Shown: positions 3,987 through 41,569 of the stretch, piece after piece
How the letters are laid out: each line of letters starts with the position of its first letter
Numbering within the stretch: position 1 is the stretch's first letter
Assembly (NCBI GenBank): GCA_030632725.1
Contig: DAOVUF010000001.1
Span: 1-44,916, forward strand
Direction of reading: 5' to 3'
DNA length: 44,916 nt
From: Gammaproteobacteria bacterium
Lineage (GTDB): Bacteria; Pseudomonadota; Gammaproteobacteria; Beggiatoales; Beggiatoaceae
Position numbers and translations under genes: made by a program
Notes under the pieces: generated by a model
Database searches by the model: none
Seen by the model: only the letters and a program-made list of their open reading frames with translations
Told to the model about the DNA's origin: nothing

Positions 3987-4030
3987 GTTTTTTTTTGTGA
4001 ATTTTGATTGATTGGAATGATAAAACACCT

Positions 4031-4187
4031 ACTCAGGGCAACCATAAAGGATTGCCCTTACAACAATATTCGTTACTACTCAGGGCAACCACAAGGGATT
4101 GCCCCTACATAAGAATATTTTCGTCAGTCTTTCTTCATAAGAATATTGTTGTAGGGGCAATCCCTTGTGGTTGCCCTGAGTTGTTAC
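4031..4187. mobile_element. Family B MITE (TIR ...CTCAGGGCAACCAyAAGGATTGCCCCTAC / GTAGGGGCAATCCCTTGTGGTTGCCCTGAG)
   Basis: Inverted terminal repeats are visible directly, with an extra internal half-copy. It forms the left bracket of the 4219-6626 islet. The track ORF 4004..4201 is a translation of this repeat. Confidence 0.85.
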
Positions 4188-4218
4188 AAACACAAATTTG
4201 ATGTCCGAAAACTTGAAA

Positions 4219-4773
4219 TTATCGTTTTCTTTTACCTTTCGTTTTTTTTGGAATACCTCTTAAAAAATCACCAAATTCATCTTGATTTTTCAAGTTCTTC
4301 CTTTGGATAATAGTCACATTATCTGGTTGAAACACTTTTAACAAATCTCGTTGATATTTCTGATGTTCTTGTAGTGACGAACCACCTGCTGTAACAATGC
4401 AAGCTTTAGGTATATATTTTAATCTGAAATGTCGCTTAAAATGCTTGTAGGTATTTATCACTTGTTTAGTGGCTTTACCTAAATCTTTAATATTATCCTT
4501 CAACTCTACGAAACAAAAAACGCGCTCATCTCCTTTGGCGTAAAATACGAGCAAATCACAAATACTTTCGCCCTTTTGATTTCCATATAATTTTTGACGT
4601 AGATGACAGTCAGGATTCGATTGATCATCTATATGGAAAAAGAGTATCGTTTCAGCCGCTTGTGGTTTTACCCAAACTGATGCTTTGCTTTCATCACAAC
4701 GAGTTTCACCTGTCAGTAAACAGGGGGTTAAGAGTAATGTTTCAAGAAGCGAACTATTTTCAGAATAGGGCAT
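4219..4773 (-). CDS. 184-aa hypothetical protein with PD-(D/E)xK-like motif and basic tail; putative nuclease partner of the upstream ATPase
   Basis: The track start at 4788 is a TTG. An ATG at 4773 is preceded by TGAGGAAAC, a GAGGA SD overlapping the ATPase stop codon. Motif ICDLLVFYAKGDERVFCFVELKD (D, then ExK about 17 aa later in a beta-hairpin-like context). C-terminal tail GIPKKTKGKRKR. I recognise no homologue, so the function is inferred. Confidence 0.6.
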   Translation of the reverse strand: MPYSENSSLLETLLLTPCLLTGETRCDESKASVWVKPQAAETILFFHIDDQSNPDCHLRQKLYGNQKGESICDLLVFYAKGDERVFCFVELKDNIKDLGKATKQVINTYKHFKRHFRLKYIPKACIVTAGGSSLQEHQKYQRDLLKVFQPDNVTIIQRKNLKNQDEFGDFLRGIPKKTKGKRKR

Positions 4774-4784
4774 TATCTGTTTCC

Positions 4785-6185
4785 TCAATCTATCATAGTG
4801 AGTACTTGAGAATAGATATGAGAAACATCGGAAGAGACATTAGCAAAAGTACTCCAATCTATAACTCCCTTTTCATCAACAATATTTCTTGCAGTGCTAT
4901 TTTCAAATAAATAAATCGACACTTGTTCTTGTGGAATAAACGCATCAGTTCGTTCTAAATAAAACCGTTCTTTAATGTCATTCTTATTTTCATGTTTAGC
5001 CGCTTGCATGAGATTTGCTATATGATCAACAATATAAGGGCTATGGGTTGTAATAAGAACACGTAAACCGGCATTAACCAACATAGCTAAAAATTCAATC
5101 AATTCAACTTGAGCGGCGGGGTGCAAGTTCATTTCTGGCTCATCAATGATAATCCAATCGTTTGGTTCAGCCAAATAACGCAAATAAAGGACTAATGGGG
5201 CGAGTTCCTTTATCATTGAAGAAACAAGGGGTATTTCTAATTTGACGTTTTCAGTGGTTTGAAAAAACAATTCCTTTTGTAATCCTGATGTGTCAAAATC
5301 GACATTGCCCCGTAAAATCTCTGTTTCTAAAAATTCAGCCAATTTGACATAATCCGATATTTTTGGATTATTAGTGATTTGTTCTTTCCGAACCGCTGGA
5401 CTTTTAAAGGCTGCCCTCATAATCATTTTTAAAAAACGCTCAACAGGTTCAACCATTCTTCCAGATTCTGTTTCTAAGTTTTCATCTTCTTCAACGCTTT
5501 TTTCCTTGAATTTGAAAGTGCTTAGGGGAAAAGTAATAAAAGTCGTTCTTTCAGTAGGAAAAACGTAGGCATTATAATAGAAGGCTCTTTGAATAATTTG
5601 AAATAATTGCAAACCAACAAATTTTTTTACTGCTCGTTCAGGTAGCTTTTTCAATATTTCACCCTCAGAGTAAAAATATAAAATCGCTTTCCCCGATTCT
5701 TTAAACGCATTAATAAGGGCCTTTTTGCTCTGTGAGCCAAAAGACAATTTTTTATCCACTGTTGTTGCAGTTATTTTATCTAAAAATGCGGTTTTGATCG
5801 CCGCTAAATCAATCTGCAATCGCAAATCATCAAAATTGACTCGCCTTGTTGCCATAAATGTTGGCATCCAAGCGGCTGCAAGACGAGCGACATCATTGAT
5901 ATAGGTTTCCGCATAATCATTAGCAAATTGTACCACATCAATTTGGGCGTTTCCTTCGGCAAGCAACTGTTTAATAGCATTATCTAAAGGCGGATATGTC
6001 TTTTGTGTTTTACCATTGAAATAAGCTGTCAGGTACTTATCATATCCATAAGGACCAAAAATAGCGGATAAAGTATAAGCAGCCCAGGTTTTACCCGTAC
6101 CGTTTTCACCAATAAAAACAGTTAAAGGCTTTAAATCAATAGTAGCTTTGTCAATTGCCCCTAAATGGCTAATTGAAATTTTCAT
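4785..6185 (-). CDS. Split ABC/SMC-like (OLD / AAA_15-AAA_21 type) ATPase
   Basis: Walker A FIGENGTGKTW, about 300-aa helical insert, signature-like VSSMIKELAP, Walker B/D-loop DWIIIDEPEMNLHP, H-loop LITTHSPYIV. The track start (6215) is a TTG. ATGs at 6191 and 6185 follow AGGAGAA, and 6185 (MKISISHL...) has the better spacing. Confidence 0.8.
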   Translation of the reverse strand: MKISISHLGAIDKATIDLKPLTVFIGENGTGKTWAAYTLSAIFGPYGYDKYLTAYFNGKTQKTYPPLDNAIKQLLAEGNAQIDVVQFANDYAETYINDVARLAAAWMPTFMATRRVNFDDLRLQIDLAAIKTAFLDKITATTVDKKLSFGSQSKKALINAFKESGKAILYFYSEGEILKKLPERAVKKFVGLQLFQIIQRAFYYNAYVFPTERTTFITFPLSTFKFKEKSVEEDENLETESGRMVEPVERFLKMIMRAAFKSPAVRKEQITNNPKISDYVKLAEFLETEILRGNVDFDTSGLQKELFFQTTENVKLEIPLVSSMIKELAPLVLYLRYLAEPNDWIIIDEPEMNLHPAAQVELIEFLAMLVNAGLRVLITTHSPYIVDHIANLMQAAKHENKNDIKERFYLERTDAFIPQEQVSIYLFENSTARNIVDEKGVIDWSTFANVSSDVSHIYSQVLTMID

Positions 6186-6249
6186 TGCCATTTTCTCCTG
6201 TGCTAAAAAATTCAATCTTTTCTGTTTTCGATGTTCAAATTCTTCATAC

Positions 6250-6626
6250 TCATGTTTTACATCCCGTCAAGTCATCTAGTGGTTCATTAAAATCATCAGA
6301 CATCCAAACTGAGTCTTTGGCAGTATCTAATTGTCTTGGTGATGTATTTGAAATGGATGGTGAATGACTAACGGCAGATTGCGTGATGGAAACCGGCGAA
6401 AGTATGGCTACCGGATTTCCAGCGGTTGTAATAAAAACGAGTTGTCCGTTGGTAATGGTATTCGTAACTACTCAGGGCAACCATAAAGGATTGCCCCTAC
6501 AAGAATATTCTTATGTTGAGTGACGAAAATCTTCTGATGTAGGGGCAATCCCTTGTGGTTGCCTGAGTAGTAACTGGTATTCATCAGTTCACTTGATAAT
6601 TTCGCTTTTAAAATCAACTGTATGCA
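6250..6626 (-). pseudogene. Phd/YefM-like antitoxin gene split by a family B MITE
   Basis: Removing 6464-6574 plus one copy of the 8-bp duplication TGGTATTC gives a continuous frame. It reads (L)ILKAKLSSELMNTITNGQLVFITTAGNPVAILSPV...DSVWMSDDFNEPLDDLTGCKT*, stop at 6250-6252. As it stands, the frame breaks inside the MITE. There is also a possible second frameshift near the 5' end (MMHTVDFKSEIIK* in another frame). Confidence 0.65.
6464..6574. mobile_element. Family B MITE with 8-bp target-site duplication TGGTATTC
   Basis: TIRs gtaactactcagggcaacc / ggttgcctgagtagtaac. Identical tggtattc at 6456-6463 and 6575-6582. Confidence 0.9.
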
Positions 6627-6658
6627 TCATTTTTCATCTCCTAATAAAAGAAGTAAAT

Positions 6659-6724
6659 GTAGGGTGGGTAGGAACGAAGTGGCACAAAAAATGGTGGGTT
6701 TCGCTATTGCTCTACCCACCCTAC
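6659..6724. repeat. Family C palindromic element (GTAGGGTGGGTAGGAACGAAGTGGCAC ... GGTGGGTTTCGC...CTACCCACCCTAC)
   Basis: Direct reading. Copies at 11596, 30405, 42344 and 44737, with a half copy at 40308. Confidence 0.9.
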
Positions 6725-6754
6725 ATTAAAAGACTTTTTGTTCTGTGCCACTTC

Positions 6755-11282: not shown

Positions 11283-11446
11283 GTAACTACTCAGGGCAAC
11301 CACAAGGAATTGCCCCTACATCAGAAGATTTTCCTCCGTCTTCATAAGAATATTGTAGTAGGGGCAATCCTTTATGGTTGCCTGAGTCTTCATAAGAATA
11401 TTGTTTGTTGTAGGGGCAATCCTTTATGGTTGCCCTGAGTAGTTAC
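11283..11446. mobile_element. Family B MITE with 8-bp target-site duplication AATTAATT
   Basis: gtaactactcagggcaacc...ggttgccctgagtagttac. aattaatt at 11275-11282 and 11447-11454. The track ORF 11223..11438 translates this element. Confidence 0.9.
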
Positions 11447-11729: not shown

Positions 11730-14700
11730 TCAGTCGTCATCACCAGTGACTTCACCAATCAGTTCCGCATGGACTAATTGACTTGTACCATTTATCACCA
11801 ATTCTGCCAATTCACCGAATTCTAAAACGTTGAAATAAGGTGTTGCAGATTCTTCATTGACAGGTGTCATAGTCAATTCAGGTGTGGCTTTCCAGCGGAA
11901 ACCTTCCGAATCAAAATGAATTGTTCCATCCATTTTGAACTCGAAATTCAAGCCCATACCTCCTGATGTAGCCAAAAGTACATTTTTGCGATCATACGCA
12001 GGGTGCATGACTTGCATGGTGCCGTCTTTATAAACCACTTTCGCCACTTCATTAACACCGGCTTTGCCTTCAATGGTAATACCTGGTGCCAAACCTTCAT
12101 CCGCTTGTTGGATCATTGGACTAAAGACGCAAGCGATTTTACGGGCATTATCACCTAGAATCTCTAGTTGCGTTTCACCATATTCATTGATCTCAACGCT
12201 ACCGCCGGCTGTCACTTCAAGCAAGAGTTCAGGTGCTTTAGGCATCGGCATAAACGTGACTTTGTAGCCGCTTGCGGTAATCAGTACATAACGACCTTCT
12301 GCATTCACACTTACCCCTGGCGCAGTGTCTTCTTCAACCGCTTCAATGCCGCCTTCTTCAGGAATAAAGGAAAATTCCAACCCTTGAAGACTACCAGAGC
12401 CTTGTACTATCAAAATACCCGTGTCTTTCTGCTCGAAAGCAAGTTCAGGATAACTCTCTGCCAACGTCTGATTCAATTCAGACAATACCGTTGTTTTGCT
12501 TGCTGACCAGTTTCCGCCTAAACTCAAATCTACCTCTAAATCAGGCAGTTCAGGTAAGGCAATTGTTGCGGACAACTTGACTTTTCTGTGCTTCTTAGGC
12601 AGTTTGATCTTCTTGCCCTTCTTGAATTTCAGCTTGCCCTTGACATTTACTTCAATGCCCAGATGTGCCAAAAACGTATTGATAACCGCAGGTTTAACCT
12701 CGTCAGCATTGATGTTTAAGACAATTTTGAGCATATCCTCAGTTGAGATTTTTTCCAATTCATCTCTACTGATATTTTCCAGAAGGTCAAACCCAATAGC
12801 GAAAATGACTTCGTTATCCAAGCCACCAATGTTATTGGCATTTATACCACCTTCAAGTACCTCTATTGACATTTCGTCAAAATGATCAATAGTTAGCCCA
12901 CTCAAGGCATCCGCGCTGAGACTGGCAAACTGTTCTTGAGTAAAGGCCGCAACAGCTTCTACACTCAGATGAACAATCTGTTCCGCTGTTAAGACAGCAA
13001 TCACATCGACATTCAGTTCAGCCACTTGTTCTTCACTAAAGCCAGCCATTGCTTCGGCAGGTAAAGAGGCGACTTGTTCAACCGTAAAATGGCTAAAGAC
13101 TACTGGGTTCAAGTGAACAATCTGTTCAGCTGTGATGTTCACAATGATTTCATGACTCAGTTGAGTCACCGCGTCGGCGGTGAGATCAATTTGTCCTGTT
13201 TCATCATCGAATGTCCAGCCTTCTGGAATAGTCGTTTCTATCTTTTCAACATGGCCACCTTGTTCGATTATAACCAGCGTGATGGTGATTTTACTGGCGG
13301 CGGGTTGTTTTTCAACAACATTAATTAACACCGTCTCGAAAGTCTTCACCTCGAAGTCAATAACAAACAGCTTTGCCAATACTTCTGGAGGTAGAATTTC
13401 TACTTTCTCTTGAGGAAGCAGTATTTCAAGAGAGACTTCGTCCTGGACAGCTAATATCTCACTGTCAATGGATCCAATCTGTTCGGCTGTCCAGAAACTC
13501 AAACTATTTGCGTCAAATAAGGCAAAGTTCTCGACAGTCAAAGAGGCAATCACTTCAGGAGATAACGCTTTAACGGCACTTTCTGTCAGTTCAAACTGAA
13601 TTGAGCCGTCGTCAAGTGTTATGACAGTCCAATCTATTGTTAGGAACAGCTCTAGGCGCGTTGCTTCAATCACATCCAGATAGTTTAAAACTATCCAAGC
13701 TGATACGTTGCTGTCGCCAGAAATCCATTCCAATATGGTTCCTTCAGCACTTAACACGATCTCTTCAACGACTTCAACATTAAGGGACATCAGAATGTCA
13801 AAGCCCATCGCTTCTAAAATCTCCAGTTTTAGGGCAAGAAACGCTTCTGCACTTAAACCAGATAGGGCTTCTGCACTGAAGTTTGACAGTTGTTCAAGCG
13901 TCAAACTTTCAAGAACACTGATATCAAGCACAGCGACTTGTTCCTTGGTAAGGCTACTGAGGGCAGCCAGAGGAATCTTAGCAAAATCTTCTGCGGTTAT
14001 TCCGGCAATGCTTTCAAGAGAGAGCTTGATGATAGCATTGGCATCCAATTCTGGAAAATCAATCTCAATGACGGTGATGTCATCATCGTCAAGTGTTGAT
14101 GGCGTGCCGGGGTCATCCTCAATGATGGTGATGTCATCCACTGGATCAGGCGATGTTTCCGTGGCGGTTTCATCTTCTATGGTTATGTCTATTCCCATTT
14201 GTTGGTTTGTTACCAACTCCATCAGGCCATCTATCGACAACTCGTTTGTCACCGTGAGAGGCATGAGACCATGCAGGATGACAATTTCATCCCTCTTTAA
14301 GGTTTCAAAGTCAATCCAGTAGATAAATGCCGGGGTCATGTACTTGTAGGCTTTTTTATCCACATCGAACTTGACTTCGACTCTGAACTCGTTGGTCTTC
14401 TTGTCTTCTTTGACCTTGACTTTGGCGTTAATGTAGCTGGGTAAGAACGCTTTGTAGAACTCTTTCAGTTCTTTTTCCAGTTCTTTTTTGAACTTCTTGT
14501 CATATTTACCGTACTTCTTCTCAAACGCGGCGATGAACTGTTCTTGGAAAAGGCGTTGATCCAGGTTGAGAAATATCTTTGCCTTAGTCTCATCGTCCAA
14601 ATCGACACTAAGTAGTCTCAACTGGTCAGCGAATAGAATAAATTCTTCGCCAGTCAAGCCTGCAAAAAAGTCAAGCGACAGTCCTTTAAGCCCGGTGATG

Positions 14701-16034
14701 TCCAAGGTGTCAATATTAATCTCATCACGATCTTCATCGTCGTCATCATCGTCGTCGTCGTCATCACCGTCATCATCATCATCGTCATCACGATCATCGT
14801 CGTCATCATCATCGTCATCACGATCATCATCGTCATCATCAATCAGACTGACAATCTCATCTTCTGTCCATTCTGCTTGAACGGTTTCAGGCATTGAGGT
14901 AAACAATGCGAGCACTTCGTTCTTTTTCAGACTTTCCAAGTCAAGCCACAAGATAAATGCCGGGGTCATGTATTTGTAGGCTTTTTTATCCACATCGAAT
15001 TTGACTTCGACTCTGATTTCCTTGGTCTTTTTGTCTTCTTTGACTTTGACTTTGGCTTTAATGTAGCTGGGTAAGAACGCCTTGTAATACTCTTTCAGTT
15101 CTTTTTCAAGGGCCTTTCCGTATTTCTTGGCACCATTTTTGCCAAATTTTCCCTCAAACAGGGTAATGAACTCTTGTTGGAATAGGTTCTGATCCAGGGA
15201 AAAAAATATCTTTGCCTTAGTCTCATCGTCCAAATCGACACTAAGTAGTCTCAACTGGTCAGCGAATAGAATAAATTCTTCGCCAGCCAAGTCTGCAATA
15301 AAATCAAGCGACAGTCCTTTAATCCCGGTGACATCTAACGTGGCGAAATCTAACATGGCTAAATCAAGCAGGGTCAAGCTCTTGATGTCTGCATCAGTTA
15401 CGCCTTTTGTCACGCTGTCGGGAAAGAGAGTAAACAGTTCTCTCACATCGCTTTCTTTCATACCCTCAAAATCAAGAAAGCTGAAAAACGCTTTGGGCAT
15501 GTAACTCAGGTGGAGCTTTTTGGCCTTTTTCTTATCCAGTTCAAACTTGACTTCGATTTTGAACGTTTTGGTCTTCTTGTCTTCTTTGACTTTGACCTTG
15601 GCTTTAATGTATTCCGGTAAGAACGCCTTGTAGAACTCTTTCAGTTCTTTTTCCAGTTCTTTTTCAAACTTCTTGTCATATTTACCGTATTTCTTCTCAA
15701 ACGCAGCGATGAACTGTTCTTGGAAAAGGCGTTGATCCAGGTTGAGAAATATCTTTGCTTTGTCCTCTTCGTCCAAATTGAGCGTTTTCAGTTGGTCAAT
15801 GAGGAGTACAAACTGCTCTCCTTTTAACGTCTGAAAAAAGCCGATTTCTAATTGAGCGATTGAGGTGACAGTCAATTCTGTTATTTGTACGTTTGTGAGG
15901 ATAACAGAAGAGGCGATATCGCCACCAGGTAGGCTCACGTCAGCTTGAGCAGTCAATGGGGTAATTGATGCACTTCCCATAGCTAACGTGAAAATGGCGG
16001 CTTGAATAGCCACAGTGAGTTTTTTCTTTTTCAA
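11730..16034 (-). CDS. 1434-aa secreted, highly acidic modular repeat protein (function unknown)
   Basis: Signal peptide MKKKKLTVAIQAAIFTLAMGSASITPLTAQA. Three ~230-aa Lys/Glu-rich modules (...LFADQLRLLSVDLDDETKAKIF...KAKVKVKEDKKTK...). A ~45-residue poly-Asp tract. A long series of L-[ST]-x-E-Q-[IV]-type short repeats. A ~330-aa non-repetitive C-terminal domain. I recognise no homologue. Confidence 0.85.
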   Translation of the reverse strand: MKKKKLTVAIQAAIFTLAMGSASITPLTAQADVSLPGGDIASSVILTNVQITELTVTSIAQLEIGFFQTLKGEQFVLLIDQLKTLNLDEEDKAKIFLNLDQRLFQEQFIAAFEKKYGKYDKKFEKELEKELKEFYKAFLPEYIKAKVKVKEDKKTKTFKIEVKFELDKKKAKKLHLSYMPKAFFSFLDFEGMKESDVRELFTLFPDSVTKGVTDADIKSLTLLDLAMLDFATLDVTGIKGLSLDFIADLAGEEFILFADQLRLLSVDLDDETKAKIFFSLDQNLFQQEFITLFEGKFGKNGAKKYGKALEKELKEYYKAFLPSYIKAKVKVKEDKKTKEIRVEVKFDVDKKAYKYMTPAFILWLDLESLKKNEVLALFTSMPETVQAEWTEDEIVSLIDDDDDDRDDDDDDDDDRDDDDDDDGDDDDDDDDDDEDRDEINIDTLDITGLKGLSLDFFAGLTGEEFILFADQLRLLSVDLDDETKAKIFLNLDQRLFQEQFIAAFEKKYGKYDKKFKKELEKELKEFYKAFLPSYINAKVKVKEDKKTNEFRVEVKFDVDKKAYKYMTPAFIYWIDFETLKRDEIVILHGLMPLTVTNELSIDGLMELVTNQQMGIDITIEDETATETSPDPVDDITIIEDDPGTPSTLDDDDITVIEIDFPELDANAIIKLSLESIAGITAEDFAKIPLAALSSLTKEQVAVLDISVLESLTLEQLSNFSAEALSGLSAEAFLALKLEILEAMGFDILMSLNVEVVEEIVLSAEGTILEWISGDSNVSAWIVLNYLDVIEATRLELFLTIDWTVITLDDGSIQFELTESAVKALSPEVIASLTVENFALFDANSLSFWTAEQIGSIDSEILAVQDEVSLEILLPQEKVEILPPEVLAKLFVIDFEVKTFETVLINVVEKQPAASKITITLVIIEQGGHVEKIETTIPEGWTFDDETGQIDLTADAVTQLSHEIIVNITAEQIVHLNPVVFSHFTVEQVASLPAEAMAGFSEEQVAELNVDVIAVLTAEQIVHLSVEAVAAFTQEQFASLSADALSGLTIDHFDEMSIEVLEGGINANNIGGLDNEVIFAIGFDLLENISRDELEKISTEDMLKIVLNINADEVKPAVINTFLAHLGIEVNVKGKLKFKKGKKIKLPKKHRKVKLSATIALPELPDLEVDLSLGGNWSASKTTVLSELNQTLAESYPELAFEQKDTGILIVQGSGSLQGLEFSFIPEEGGIEAVEEDTAPGVSVNAEGRYVLITASGYKVTFMPMPKAPELLLEVTAGGSVEINEYGETQLEILGDNARKIACVFSPMIQQADEGLAPGITIEGKAGVNEVAKVVYKDGTMQVMHPAYDRKNVLLATSGGMGLNFEFKMDGTIHFDSEGFRWKATPELTMTPVNEESATPYFNVLEFGELAELVINGTSQLVHAELIGEVTGDDD
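14722..14842 (-). repeat. GAT/GAC trinucleotide tract encoding the poly-Asp run (DDDDDDRDDDDDDDDDRDDDDDDDGDDDDDDDDDDEDRD)
   Basis: Direct reading. The antisense strand gives the spurious poly-Ser track ORF 14566..14880. Confidence 0.9.
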
Positions 16035-16119: not shown

Positions 16120-16301
16120 GTTACTACGAAGGGCAACCACAAGGGATTGCCCCTACATAAGAATACTTTCGTCAGTTTTTGTAGGGGCAATCCTTTATGG
16201 TTGCCCTTCGTAGGGGCAATCCTTTATGGTTGCCCTTCGTAGGGGCAATCCTTTATGGTTGCCCTTCGTAGGGGCAATCCTTTATGGTTGCCCTGAGTTA
16301 C
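16120..16301. mobile_element. Family B MITE whose right arm is amplified to four tandem 29-nt units
   Basis: gttactacgaagggcaaccacaagggattgcccctac..., then gtaggggcaatcctttatggttgcccttc x4 (16181-16296, no spacers). Confidence 0.85.
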
Positions 16302-41277: not shown

Positions 41278-41569
41278 TAAGAAAAAATAACTTTCGCCTC
41301 GAATACAAATACGTTGAGAGTTGGAGGTTTAAGTTTTTTGAAGAAAAACTTAAACCTCGAAACCAAGTTTTTAACTACTCAGAGCAACCATAAAGGATTC
41401 GAGGTTAAAGTTTTTTTAAAGAAAAAACTTTAACCTCGAATGCCCCTACAACATTTCAGCCTAAAGTTTTTTGAAGAAAAACTTTAGGCTGAAATATTCT
41501 TATGTAGGGGCAATCCCTTGTGGTTGCCTGATGTAGGGGCAATCCCTTGTGGTTGCCCTGAGTCGTTAC
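41278..41569. mobile_element. Nested pile of family D hairpins and a family B MITE
   Basis: Half D at about 41278. D at 41324-41361. B from 41373 to 41569 (right arm duplicated). Its left TIR aaaggat|tgcccctac is split by a D element (41399-41439), and its loop by a D-like hairpin (41453-41494). Confidence 0.85.

Follow-up and report, generated by a model that had tools for sequence, protein, structure and literature searches.

An ABC ATPase gene and its PD-(D/E)xK-fold partner in a Beggiatoaceae contig: a probable defence pair from a diverged branch of the PD-T4-4/WonAB group

PD-T4-4, a PADLOC and DefenseFinder system of E. coli and Klebsiella (plasmid pKPN6 is one example), was found by functional selection for phage defence (Vassallo et al. 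2022; PMC9519451). It is treated as a system of a PD-(D/E)xK nuclease and a P-loop NTPase, and the purified system forms a higher-order complex; DNA cutting was not seen in vitro (bioRxiv 10.1101/2025.07.10.664194). WonAB, encoded by the WASA-1 prophage of Vibrio cholerae (AWB73975.1, AWB73976.1), combines an OLD-like ABC ATPase with a PD-(D/E)xK variant; the paper on it (PMC12137116) groups it with PD-T4-4 and with the operons listed as 'OLD-ABC ATPase + novel REase' in Krishnan et al. 2020. WonAB acts by abortive infection, blocking translation and leaving DNA intact, and its activity depends on both genes, on the motifs of the ATPase and on the lysine of the nuclease; WonB is toxic when overproduced, and this toxicity depends on WonA and its ATPase activity (PMC12137116). 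Two PADLOC candidates, PDC-M29 and PDC-M47, are uncharacterised, and a literature search found no mention of either. Of these systems, only PD-T4-4 and WonAB are known to protect against phage. Here we describe a related pair of genes, A and B, in a 44,916-nucleotide (nt) stretch of a Beggiatoaceae genome (contig DAOVUF010000001.1 of GCA_030632725.1). This full stretch is referred to as the window, and coordinates are 1-based on its forward strand. With homology, conserved motifs, linkage, purifying selection, patchy spread and presence or absence between 95-96% identical genomes all observed, we consider that A and B probably form an intact, co-translated module in which an ABC ATPase is the sensor and a PD-(D/E)xK nuclease the effector, a defence subfamily of the PD-T4-4/WonAB type.

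The pair consists of the following features, each given with the evidence on which it was called.

4785-6185, minus strand: gene A, a 466-amino-acid (aa) ABC-type ATPase, OLD/PtuA/AriA-like, with no fused nuclease (Pfam, PADLOC, motifs, AlphaFold 2 model, Foldseek)
4219-4773, minus strand: gene B, a 184-aa predicted PD-(D/E)xK-fold protein (conservation, AlphaFold 2 model, Foldseek, PADLOC, hhalign, ratio of nonsynonymous to synonymous substitution rates (dN/dS))
4774-4784, minus strand: the 11-nt spacer between A and B, GGAAACAGATA (read from the sequence)
6186-6245, minus strand: a 60-nt leader 5' of gene A, specific to this locus (no homology in the sister genome L094 or in L009, which holds an 88%-identical copy of the pair)

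The list of open reading frames (ORFs) gives minus-strand frames at 6215-4785 for the ATPase and 4788-4219 for the partner. We placed the ATPase start at the ATG at 6185 (MKISISHLG...) because of the ribosome-binding site, an AGGAG 9 nt upstream, and the homologues; the resulting 466 aa equal the length of a 94%-identical homologue (P0121). Gene B runs from an ATG at 4773 to a stop at 4219-4221, and a 95%-identical homologue (P0001) covers 100% of its 184 aa. The GAGGA Shine-Dalgarno sequence of gene B overlaps the TGA stop of the ATPase gene, which suggests that the two are translationally coupled, and the gap between them is short in homologous loci too, ranging from a 29-nt overlap to 32 nt. 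Both genes are intact. What a preliminary description of the window had stated about the two ORFs, the 11-nt gap, the GAGGA and the motifs all holds, as does its naming of the flanking genes as capD-like, alr and dnaB, which the Pfam labels of orthologues at 95% identity confirm. At 0.36-0.38, the pair's GC content is a little lower than the 0.40-0.44 of the flanking housekeeping genes. The leader presumably holds a promoter or an entry point for read-through from an antitoxin gene remnant upstream; in a promoter and terminator scan, sites were no more frequent than in shuffled sequence.

We assessed gene A against profile libraries, by alignment and by structure prediction. Its protein matches Pfam AAA_15 (1.1e-23) and AAA_21 (1.9e-18), and among PADLOC models it matches PD-T4-4_A (3.6e-57, 193 bits, residues 2-435) and PDC-M47A (5.1e-46, residues 2-433) over nearly its full length. 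AriA, Old, PtuA and GajA score far behind and match mainly the conserved ATPase core, and PDC-M29A reaches only the C-terminal 96 residues (347-442, 2.4e-15). The Walker A motif (G26-x-N-x-x-G31-K32-T33), E212-R213-T214 at the Q-loop position, S322-S323 as the remnant of the ABC signature, the Walker B motif (D348-E349-P350-E351) and the H-loop (T379-T380-H381-S382) are invariant among homologues. The protein is also collinear with genuine PD-T4-4_A and PDC-M47A references, whose sources are small Col plasmids (E. coli, Klebsiella) and a cyanobacterial plasmid. In this alignment all motifs plus N353-L354-H355-P356 are invariant, with G26, N28, G31-K32-T33, E212-R213-T214, S322, D348-E351 and T379-S382 among the fixed positions. 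The AlphaFold model (predicted local distance difference test (pLDDT) 85.1) shows an ABC head into which helical and sheet subdomains are inserted, with an acidic, disordered loop over residues 220-241. Foldseek against the PDB placed it best with PtuA (from Septu and retron complexes), Rad50 heads and AriA (E 4e-8 to 5e-6, TM ~0.3-0.47), and no solved structure closer than these was found. The earlier assignment to OLD/Septu/PARIS-like ABC ATPases is supported.

Conservation is uneven along the ATPase. Within the subfamily the ABC core is 80-85% conserved, and residues 121-160 and 221-280 are just 15-40% conserved. Compared with the copy in L012 (5607-7564), the partner is 74.5% identical and the ATPase only 58%; both ends of the ATPase gene are similar, and codons ~126-280 are without nucleotide similarity. 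This discordant divergence, together with the dissimilar centre, suggests that the central segment is a hypervariable or exchanged insert domain. In a cyanobacterial genome (L002, 4851-7990), the orthologous ATPase gene is split by an insertion sequence with a DDE_Tnp_1/DUF772 transposase, next to an intact partner gene.

The protein of gene B carries ICDLLVFYAKGDERVFCFVELKD and a basic tail, KKTKGKRKR. It gave no Pfam or PHROG match and only a chance-level match in NCBIfam (E 0.024). PADLOC PDC-M29B is the only library model that recognises it (7.6e-5, profile positions 44-124 of 164), and this hidden Markov model (HMM) is also matched by 18 of 22 close homologues (best E 5.3e-9). Two of the 22 match PDC-M47B at about 1e-3 and one matches PD-T4-4_B at 6.3e-3; sub-threshold Pfam matches of the homologues are to HSDR_N, SduA_C, DUF2726 and UL24. 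When the partner profile was run against PDB sequences, only CadC appeared (E 0.2), and we dismissed it as chance. The homologues fall into ~120 clusters at 90% identity, all labelled 'hypothetical', and 206 representatives at 50% identity, with clusters from Thiomargarita, Parabeggiatoa, Microcoleus, Nostoc, Oscillatoria, Methylococcaceae and Desulfobacteraceae.

In a diverged set of these homologues (mean column identity 30%), E41, D73 and E90 of B are invariant, and K92, Q104, T108, Cys18, Cys72, Cys87 and R172 are at least 90% conserved. The AlphaFold model (pLDDT 86.7; predicted template-modelling score 0.86) has D73 opening one strand, E90-x-K92 on the next, a long helix with Q104 and then a fourth strand. 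Such a strand-strand-helix-strand layout around D...ExK...Q is the PD-(D/E)xK arrangement of restriction enzymes. Foldseek matches in the PDB (E 8e-3 to 5e-2, probabilities up to 0.92) are mostly PD-(D/E)xK nucleases and include BsmI, BstEII, PaqCI, BspD6I, FokI, BamHI and the nuclease domains of Cap4, Can2 and Card1. Those in BFVD include herpesvirus UL24/ORF20, restriction enzymes, VRR-NUC and Mrr, and the sub-threshold Pfam matches of the homologues agree with this picture. The model, these matches and the conserved D73, E90 and K92 bear out the proposal of a PD-(D/E)xK-like partner: on the predicted structure, B is a restriction-endonuclease-fold protein with conserved catalytic residues. 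The partner had also been described as lacking HNH and Toprim signatures; the Pfam and PADLOC scans agree, with no HNH match in B and no match to Toprim or DUF4435 in either protein. Cys56 of B is invariant in close relatives and Cys72 adjoins the catalytic D73; a cysteine before the catalytic aspartate is also common in PD-T4-4_B and PDC-M47B proteins. The conserved cysteines may form a metal or redox site.

We compared the pair with its closest named relatives. The downstream ORFs of more distant ATPase relatives form a second BLAST cluster, which contains genuine PD-T4-4_B and PDC-M47B proteins and whose members carry an xCD...(E/D)xK...Q core like that of B. When the B family was aligned by hhalign with a 25-sequence family alignment of PD-T4-4_B/PDC-M47B, the two matched with a probability of 95.3% (E 2.4e-8), with the D, the ExK and the Q in register. 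Genuine PD-T4-4 pairs reach 1e-109 to 1e-233 with the A models and 1e-43 to 4e-93 with the B models, and a genuine PDC-M47 pair reaches 1e-231 (A) and 3e-61 (B). The scores of the present pair lie far under those of true members, and therefore point to a separate subfamily of the same group. Judged by these alignments, the pair is a diverged, unnamed subfamily of the PD-T4-4/PDC-M47/PDC-M29 group, to which the literature relates WonAB. The pair had been put forward as possibly a distinct type; this does not survive, because both components, through the PD-T4-4_A match of A and the family alignment of B, are homologous to that group. A longer partner variant of 260-312 aa occurs in L047, L048, L051, L052, L053, L057, L058 and L073, downstream of ATPases 28-39% identical to that of the window, in Trichormus, Anabaena, Microcystis, Capsulimonadaceae and other hosts. 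In hhalign it matches the 184-aa family through its N-terminal half (96.9%) and the PD-T4-4_B/PDC-M47B family (94.7%).

The likeness to PD-T4-4 lies in the layout, a ~460-470-aa ABC ATPase first and a ~180-210-aa PD-(D/E)xK protein immediately after it, and in the ATPase motifs, all of which are common to both. By contrast, genuine members reach 364-772 bits on PD-T4-4_A and the present ATPase 193 bits, the identity of A is 22-23%, and B is distinguished by an N-terminal segment of its own, in which Cys18 is conserved, and by the basic C-terminal tail. The hosts differ too, being cyanobacteria, sulfur bacteria, Chloroflexota and methanogens here and enterobacterial mobile elements for PD-T4-4. 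With no PD-T4-4_B match for B, the pair falls outside PD-T4-4 in the strict sense. PDC-M29B recognises B and PDC-M47A matches A over its full length, yet the pair is strictly neither, since PDC-M29A covers only ATPase residues 347-442 and PDC-M29B only part of its own profile, and PDC-M47B appears in so few homologues. WonAB likewise joins an OLD-like ABC ATPase lacking Toprim to a small PD-(D/E)xK partner, and the essential residues K34, R182, E300 and H333 of WonA appear to correspond to K32, R213, E349 and H381 of A, and K71 of WonB to K92 of B. WonB is smaller (16.1 kDa), however, WonA is shorter, and WonAB lies on a prophage whereas the present pair is chromosomal. Septu (PtuAB), PARIS (AriAB) and Gabija/OLD share the ABC ATPase fold and the logic of a sensor plus a nuclease. 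As effector, however, Septu has an HNH protein (PtuB), PARIS a Toprim/DUF4435 protein (AriB) and Gabija and OLD a fused Toprim (GajA, OLD), in contrast to the separate PD-(D/E)xK protein found here. The lack of any HNH match and the fold of the partner set the pair apart from Septu; the lack of Toprim and DUF4435, with GajA, Old and AriA HMMs reaching the ATPase core only, sets it apart from Gabija, OLD and PARIS.

To determine how consistently the two genes occur together, we used a scan by ATPase alignment over one genome per GTDB species, which returned at least 534 relatives and of which the best 80 matches (79 distinct loci) were kept. Thirty-three loci have an ATPase identity of at least 38%, and three of these end at a contig edge. 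In all 30 informative loci the partner ORF lies directly downstream (26 by HMM, 4 by tblastn), A first and B second, and the two genes are thus obligate neighbours. The same pair is found in six further gene-annotated contexts, including Microcoleus, Nostoc PCC 7524 and other Beggiatoaceae, and one genome carries it between rbfA and truB. DNA similarity to the 88%-identical copy in L009 spans exactly 6186-4222, that is, the two ORFs, and ends 1 nt before the ATPase start. Relative to this copy, A has a dN/dS of 0.16 and B one of 0.21; relative to a more distant copy the values are 0.16 and 0.12. Both genes are thus under purifying selection.

Bacterial hosts of the pair include Nostocales, Microcoleus, Thiomargarita, Methylococcaceae, Thiotrichales, Ktedonobacteraceae, Thermogemmatispora, Caldilineaceae and Desulfomonilaceae. 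Archaeal hosts are Methanothrix, Methanoregula, Methanomicrobiales and ANME-2c, with ATPase identities of 38-47% (L027, L028, L035, L036, L039, L040, L043, L054). The presence of the pair in methanogenic and methanotrophic archaea implies transfer between the domains. The distribution across bacteria and archaea is patchy, and the flanks differ in almost every lineage; a tblastn search of plasmids with the partner found nothing.

This distribution bears on the possibility that the pair serves DNA repair or recombination, with a Rad50/SbcC/RecF-like ATPase and a structure-specific nuclease acting on host DNA. In Foldseek, A does lie close to Rad50 heads in addition to PtuA, faint N-terminal matches to RecN and RecF come from NCBIfam, and the neighbours are often replication or translation genes (dnaB, gyrB, infB). 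A patchy spread over two domains with changing flanks, and presence or absence between genomes 95-96% identical, fit such a role poorly, A has no long coiled-coil, and its best HMM matches are all to defence-system models. We therefore regard a repair function as very unlikely. Another possibility is a selfish mobile two-gene element, whose nuclease would cut a target site in a homing-like manner with the ATPase as helper. What the loci have in common is confined to the two ORFs, without any flank, integrase or repeat that they share, and insertions occur inside conserved operons, as between rbfA and truB. Against this, neither a target-site duplication nor a conserved insertion site was seen, and relatives 88% identical also carry the pair upstream of capD; this retained position suggests vertical descent with loss over frequent homing. 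To our knowledge, no homing-endonuclease family has the architecture of an ATPase and PD-(D/E)xK pair. Of the explanations weighed here, a selfish element is the one to which we give the slimmest chance.

We also assessed the genomic neighbourhood of the pair, using 124 ORFs from 32 loci. The commonest neighbour families are housekeeping (NadA, metallophosphoesterase, GpsA, PNPase/S1, GyrB, IF2 and TilS). Defence-type neighbours among the 124 ORFs are few: three Type I specificity subunits, with ResIII partners, and four PIN proteins. A BsoBI-type restriction-modification system lies near the Nostoc copy. In the 88%-identical relatives (L009-L011, 9016-10941), a Dam-like methyltransferase gene, a 259-aa ORF and a helix-turn-helix gene lie between the pair and capD; these are probably a type II restriction-modification cassette with its controller protein. 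In the wider group, Vibrio phage 1.202.O (Peduoviridae; L093, 2501-4532) carries a PD-T4-4-type ATPase gene and a gene for a 209-aa partner between its repressor and integrase genes, and this partner matches the PD-T4-4_B/PDC-M47B cluster HMM at 1.4e-20. P2-type prophages often carry defence genes near the integrase, and the position of this pair by the integrase of a P2-like phage therefore supports a defence role for the wider group.

By analogy with WonAB and PD-T4-4, the most likely function of the pair is abortive-infection defence. The ATPase would form a dimer and keep the nuclease complexed with it. A cue derived from the phage, which ATPase residues 121-160 and 221-280 probably read, would alter the ATP-dependent state, and the nuclease would then be released or activated and cut nucleic acid. 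The target is more likely to be RNA of the translation apparatus than bulk DNA, and the infected cell would stop growing before phage is made. It is conceivable, though we think it doubtful, that the subfamily is functionally distinct from PD-T4-4 and WonAB, as a regulated RNase with its own trigger that has spread between bacteria and methanogenic archaea. Cys18, Cys72 and Cys87, with Cys56 in close relatives, could then serve as a switch that depends on a metal or on redox state, and the lysine/arginine tail of B, which follows a conserved FLRG motif, could bind RNA. If this were true, the pair would constitute a new named defence family and not another PD-T4-4-like pair.

Several observations weigh against the assignment to a PD-T4-4/WonAB-type defence subfamily. 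A is just 22-24% identical to PD-T4-4_A and PDC-M47A, and B of the window does not match the PD-T4-4_B HMMs at E up to 1. The hhalign comparisons of the B family with single PD-T4-4_B or PDC-M47B sequences are insignificant, with probabilities of 0.9% and 6%, and the Foldseek E-values of B are weak (best 8e-3 in the PDB and 8e-4 in BFVD). The relation to WonAB comes from the published grouping of WonAB with PD-T4-4 (PMC12137116) and not from sequence comparison. The A-B complex, its trigger and its substrate are extrapolated from WonAB and PD-T4-4, so that the function of the subfamily is a predicted one. A pattern search did not find the pair in IMG/VR viral contigs, and its association with defence genes is weak. 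With so faint a neighbourhood signal, the functional assignment rests on homology, linkage and rapid gain and loss.

On this reading, the ABC-ATPase/PD-(D/E)xK defence group gains a clade whose nuclease belongs to no family in Pfam, PHROG or NCBIfam and is matched only marginally in PADLOC. The clade will therefore probably escape automated defence annotation. What is novel is confined to the subfamily itself, diverged and unannotated, with conserved cysteines and a basic tail of its own, and the findings leave the understanding of such systems unchanged. As a diverged branch in which some segments are clearly conserved and others clearly variable, the clade is useful comparative material for the trigger and substrate of the group.

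The DNA on either side of the pair contains further features.

6246-6253, minus strand: the first 8 nt of a deleted vapC gene (PIN toxin), ATGAGTAT, overlapping the antitoxin stop (L094 alignment)
6250-6630, minus strand: pseudogene of an 87-aa VapB/Phd-type antitoxin, a neighbour and not a component of the pair (translations, intact homologues)
6464-6568, no strand: palindromic repeat element, an inverted pair of a 26-nt unit, inside the antitoxin gene (absent from L094)
4014-4194, no strand: composite cluster of three 26-nt repeat units between gene B and the capD-like gene (absent from L094)

The antitoxin-like frame is broken by the 105-nt repeat element and by stops or a frameshift. It had been described as a Phd-like gene, and of this the antitoxin identity stands: intact homologues of 87 aa exist at 86% and 76% identity to the rebuilt protein, and JGI labels them as the antitoxin of a toxin-antitoxin (TA) stability system. 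The family is less well supported. Pfam PhdYeFM was not detected in the rebuilt protein, and the C-terminal tail gave only sub-threshold matches, with 27.9 bits to NCBIfam TA_VapB (cut-off 60) and 17.6 to Pfam DUF2281 (cut-off 26.5).

The history of the locus could be read from the sister genome L094 (GCA_029940435.1), which is 95-96% identical to the window and collinear with it from rpsF-rpsR-rplI-dnaB-alr to the capD-like gene. The traces of this history lie at 6246-6630 and 4195-4247 of the window and at 4001-6714 of L094. Between the antitoxin stop and capD, L094 (4269-6661) holds vapC, a 145-aa ORF and a DUF502 gene, and the window (4248-6245) holds the gene pair. The 8 nt of vapC left in the window mark the left deletion junction; in L094 ATGAGTATTTTGCTTGATACACAC... 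begins the 128-aa PIN protein. L094 in turn keeps nothing of the pair but the final 29 nt of gene B (...KTKGKRKR*), which lie beside sequence resembling a repeat end. The simplest reading of these alignments is that an ancestor held both modules, that the lineage of the window lost vapC through DUF502 and its orphan antitoxin gene then decayed, and that the L094 lineage lost the pair. The locus would thus be a clean example of reciprocal loss between near-identical genomes, of vapC in one and of the defence pair in the other.

The same comparison separates the antitoxin from the pair. Regulation of the pair by the antitoxin, as originally envisaged, is not upheld: an antitoxin gene upstream of the pair is seen in none of the six other contexts with gene annotation (no search for one was made in the DNA upstream at the 30 GTDB loci), and similarity to L009 stops just before the ATPase start. 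Intact homologues of the antitoxin instead sit upstream of PIN (VapC) genes, overlapping the start of the 128-aa PIN gene in three contexts (L094-L096), and L094 has vapBC without the pair; the antitoxin is therefore not a regulator of A and B. We considered a three-gene system regulated by Phd/YefM or VapB and ruled it out, as the antitoxin is not conserved upstream of the pair in those six contexts. On these sequence comparisons, the pseudogene is unrelated to the gene pair; like the palindromic repeats, it is a feature of a variable region between alr and capD.

A different possibility is that the pair is itself a TA (addiction) module with no dedicated anti-phage role, in which B would be a nuclease toxin, A a sequestering ATPase antitoxin, and loss of the module would kill the cell. 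The Pfam name of AAA_21 is 'putative AbiEii toxin, Type IV TA system', and in most loci the pair stands alone among housekeeping genes, like many TA modules; the present locus is a TA-rich spot with the vapBC remnant adjoining, and overproduced WonB is toxic. That toxicity needs WonA and its ATPase activity, however, which rules out simple sequestration, and L094 lost the pair without sign of compensation. A large ATPase placed first, a small nuclease second and conserved ATP-hydrolysis motifs fit a sensor and effector better, and we consider an addiction module unlikely. The addiction, repair and selfish-element explanations each account for fewer observations than abortive-infection defence.

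The repeats had been taken for miniature inverted-repeat transposable elements (MITEs) that bracket the pair as an islet. The 26-nt palindromic unit, GGCAACCAYAARGGATTGCCCYTACA, occurs in 15 copies at 6 places in the window, where 0 are expected; the places include 4037-4175, 6476-6563, 11295-11434, 16132-16292 and 41503-41557. It forms inverted pairs and head-to-tail runs with 29-nt spacing (16180-16292, 41503-41557), and resembles a REP/BIME-type family more closely than it does a classical MITE. The cluster at 4014-4194 starts 24 nt past the gene B stop. 

Both elements are absent from L094 while the flanks are common to both genomes (L094 4063/4051 corresponds to window 6569/6463, and L094 6714/6724 to window 4195/4013), and both are therefore recent insertions. 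On this alignment the repeats are later arrivals and not the ends of a cassette. With both copies missing from L094, and the DNA between repeats and genes shared with it, the picture of a bracketed islet overstates the part of the repeats, and mobilisation of the cassette by them was likewise rejected.

A second family of repeats is found just 5' of the antitoxin remnant (window 6656-6727 and 6676-6754), with a related copy elsewhere, at L094 6539-6590. In it, AATGTAGGGTGGGTAG and CTACCCACCCTACATT form a perfect inverted repeat of 16 nt, with which a pair of GAAGTGGCACAAAA is nested. Palindromic repeat clusters also lie on both sides of a 1434-aa ORF on the minus strand of the window (11730-16034).

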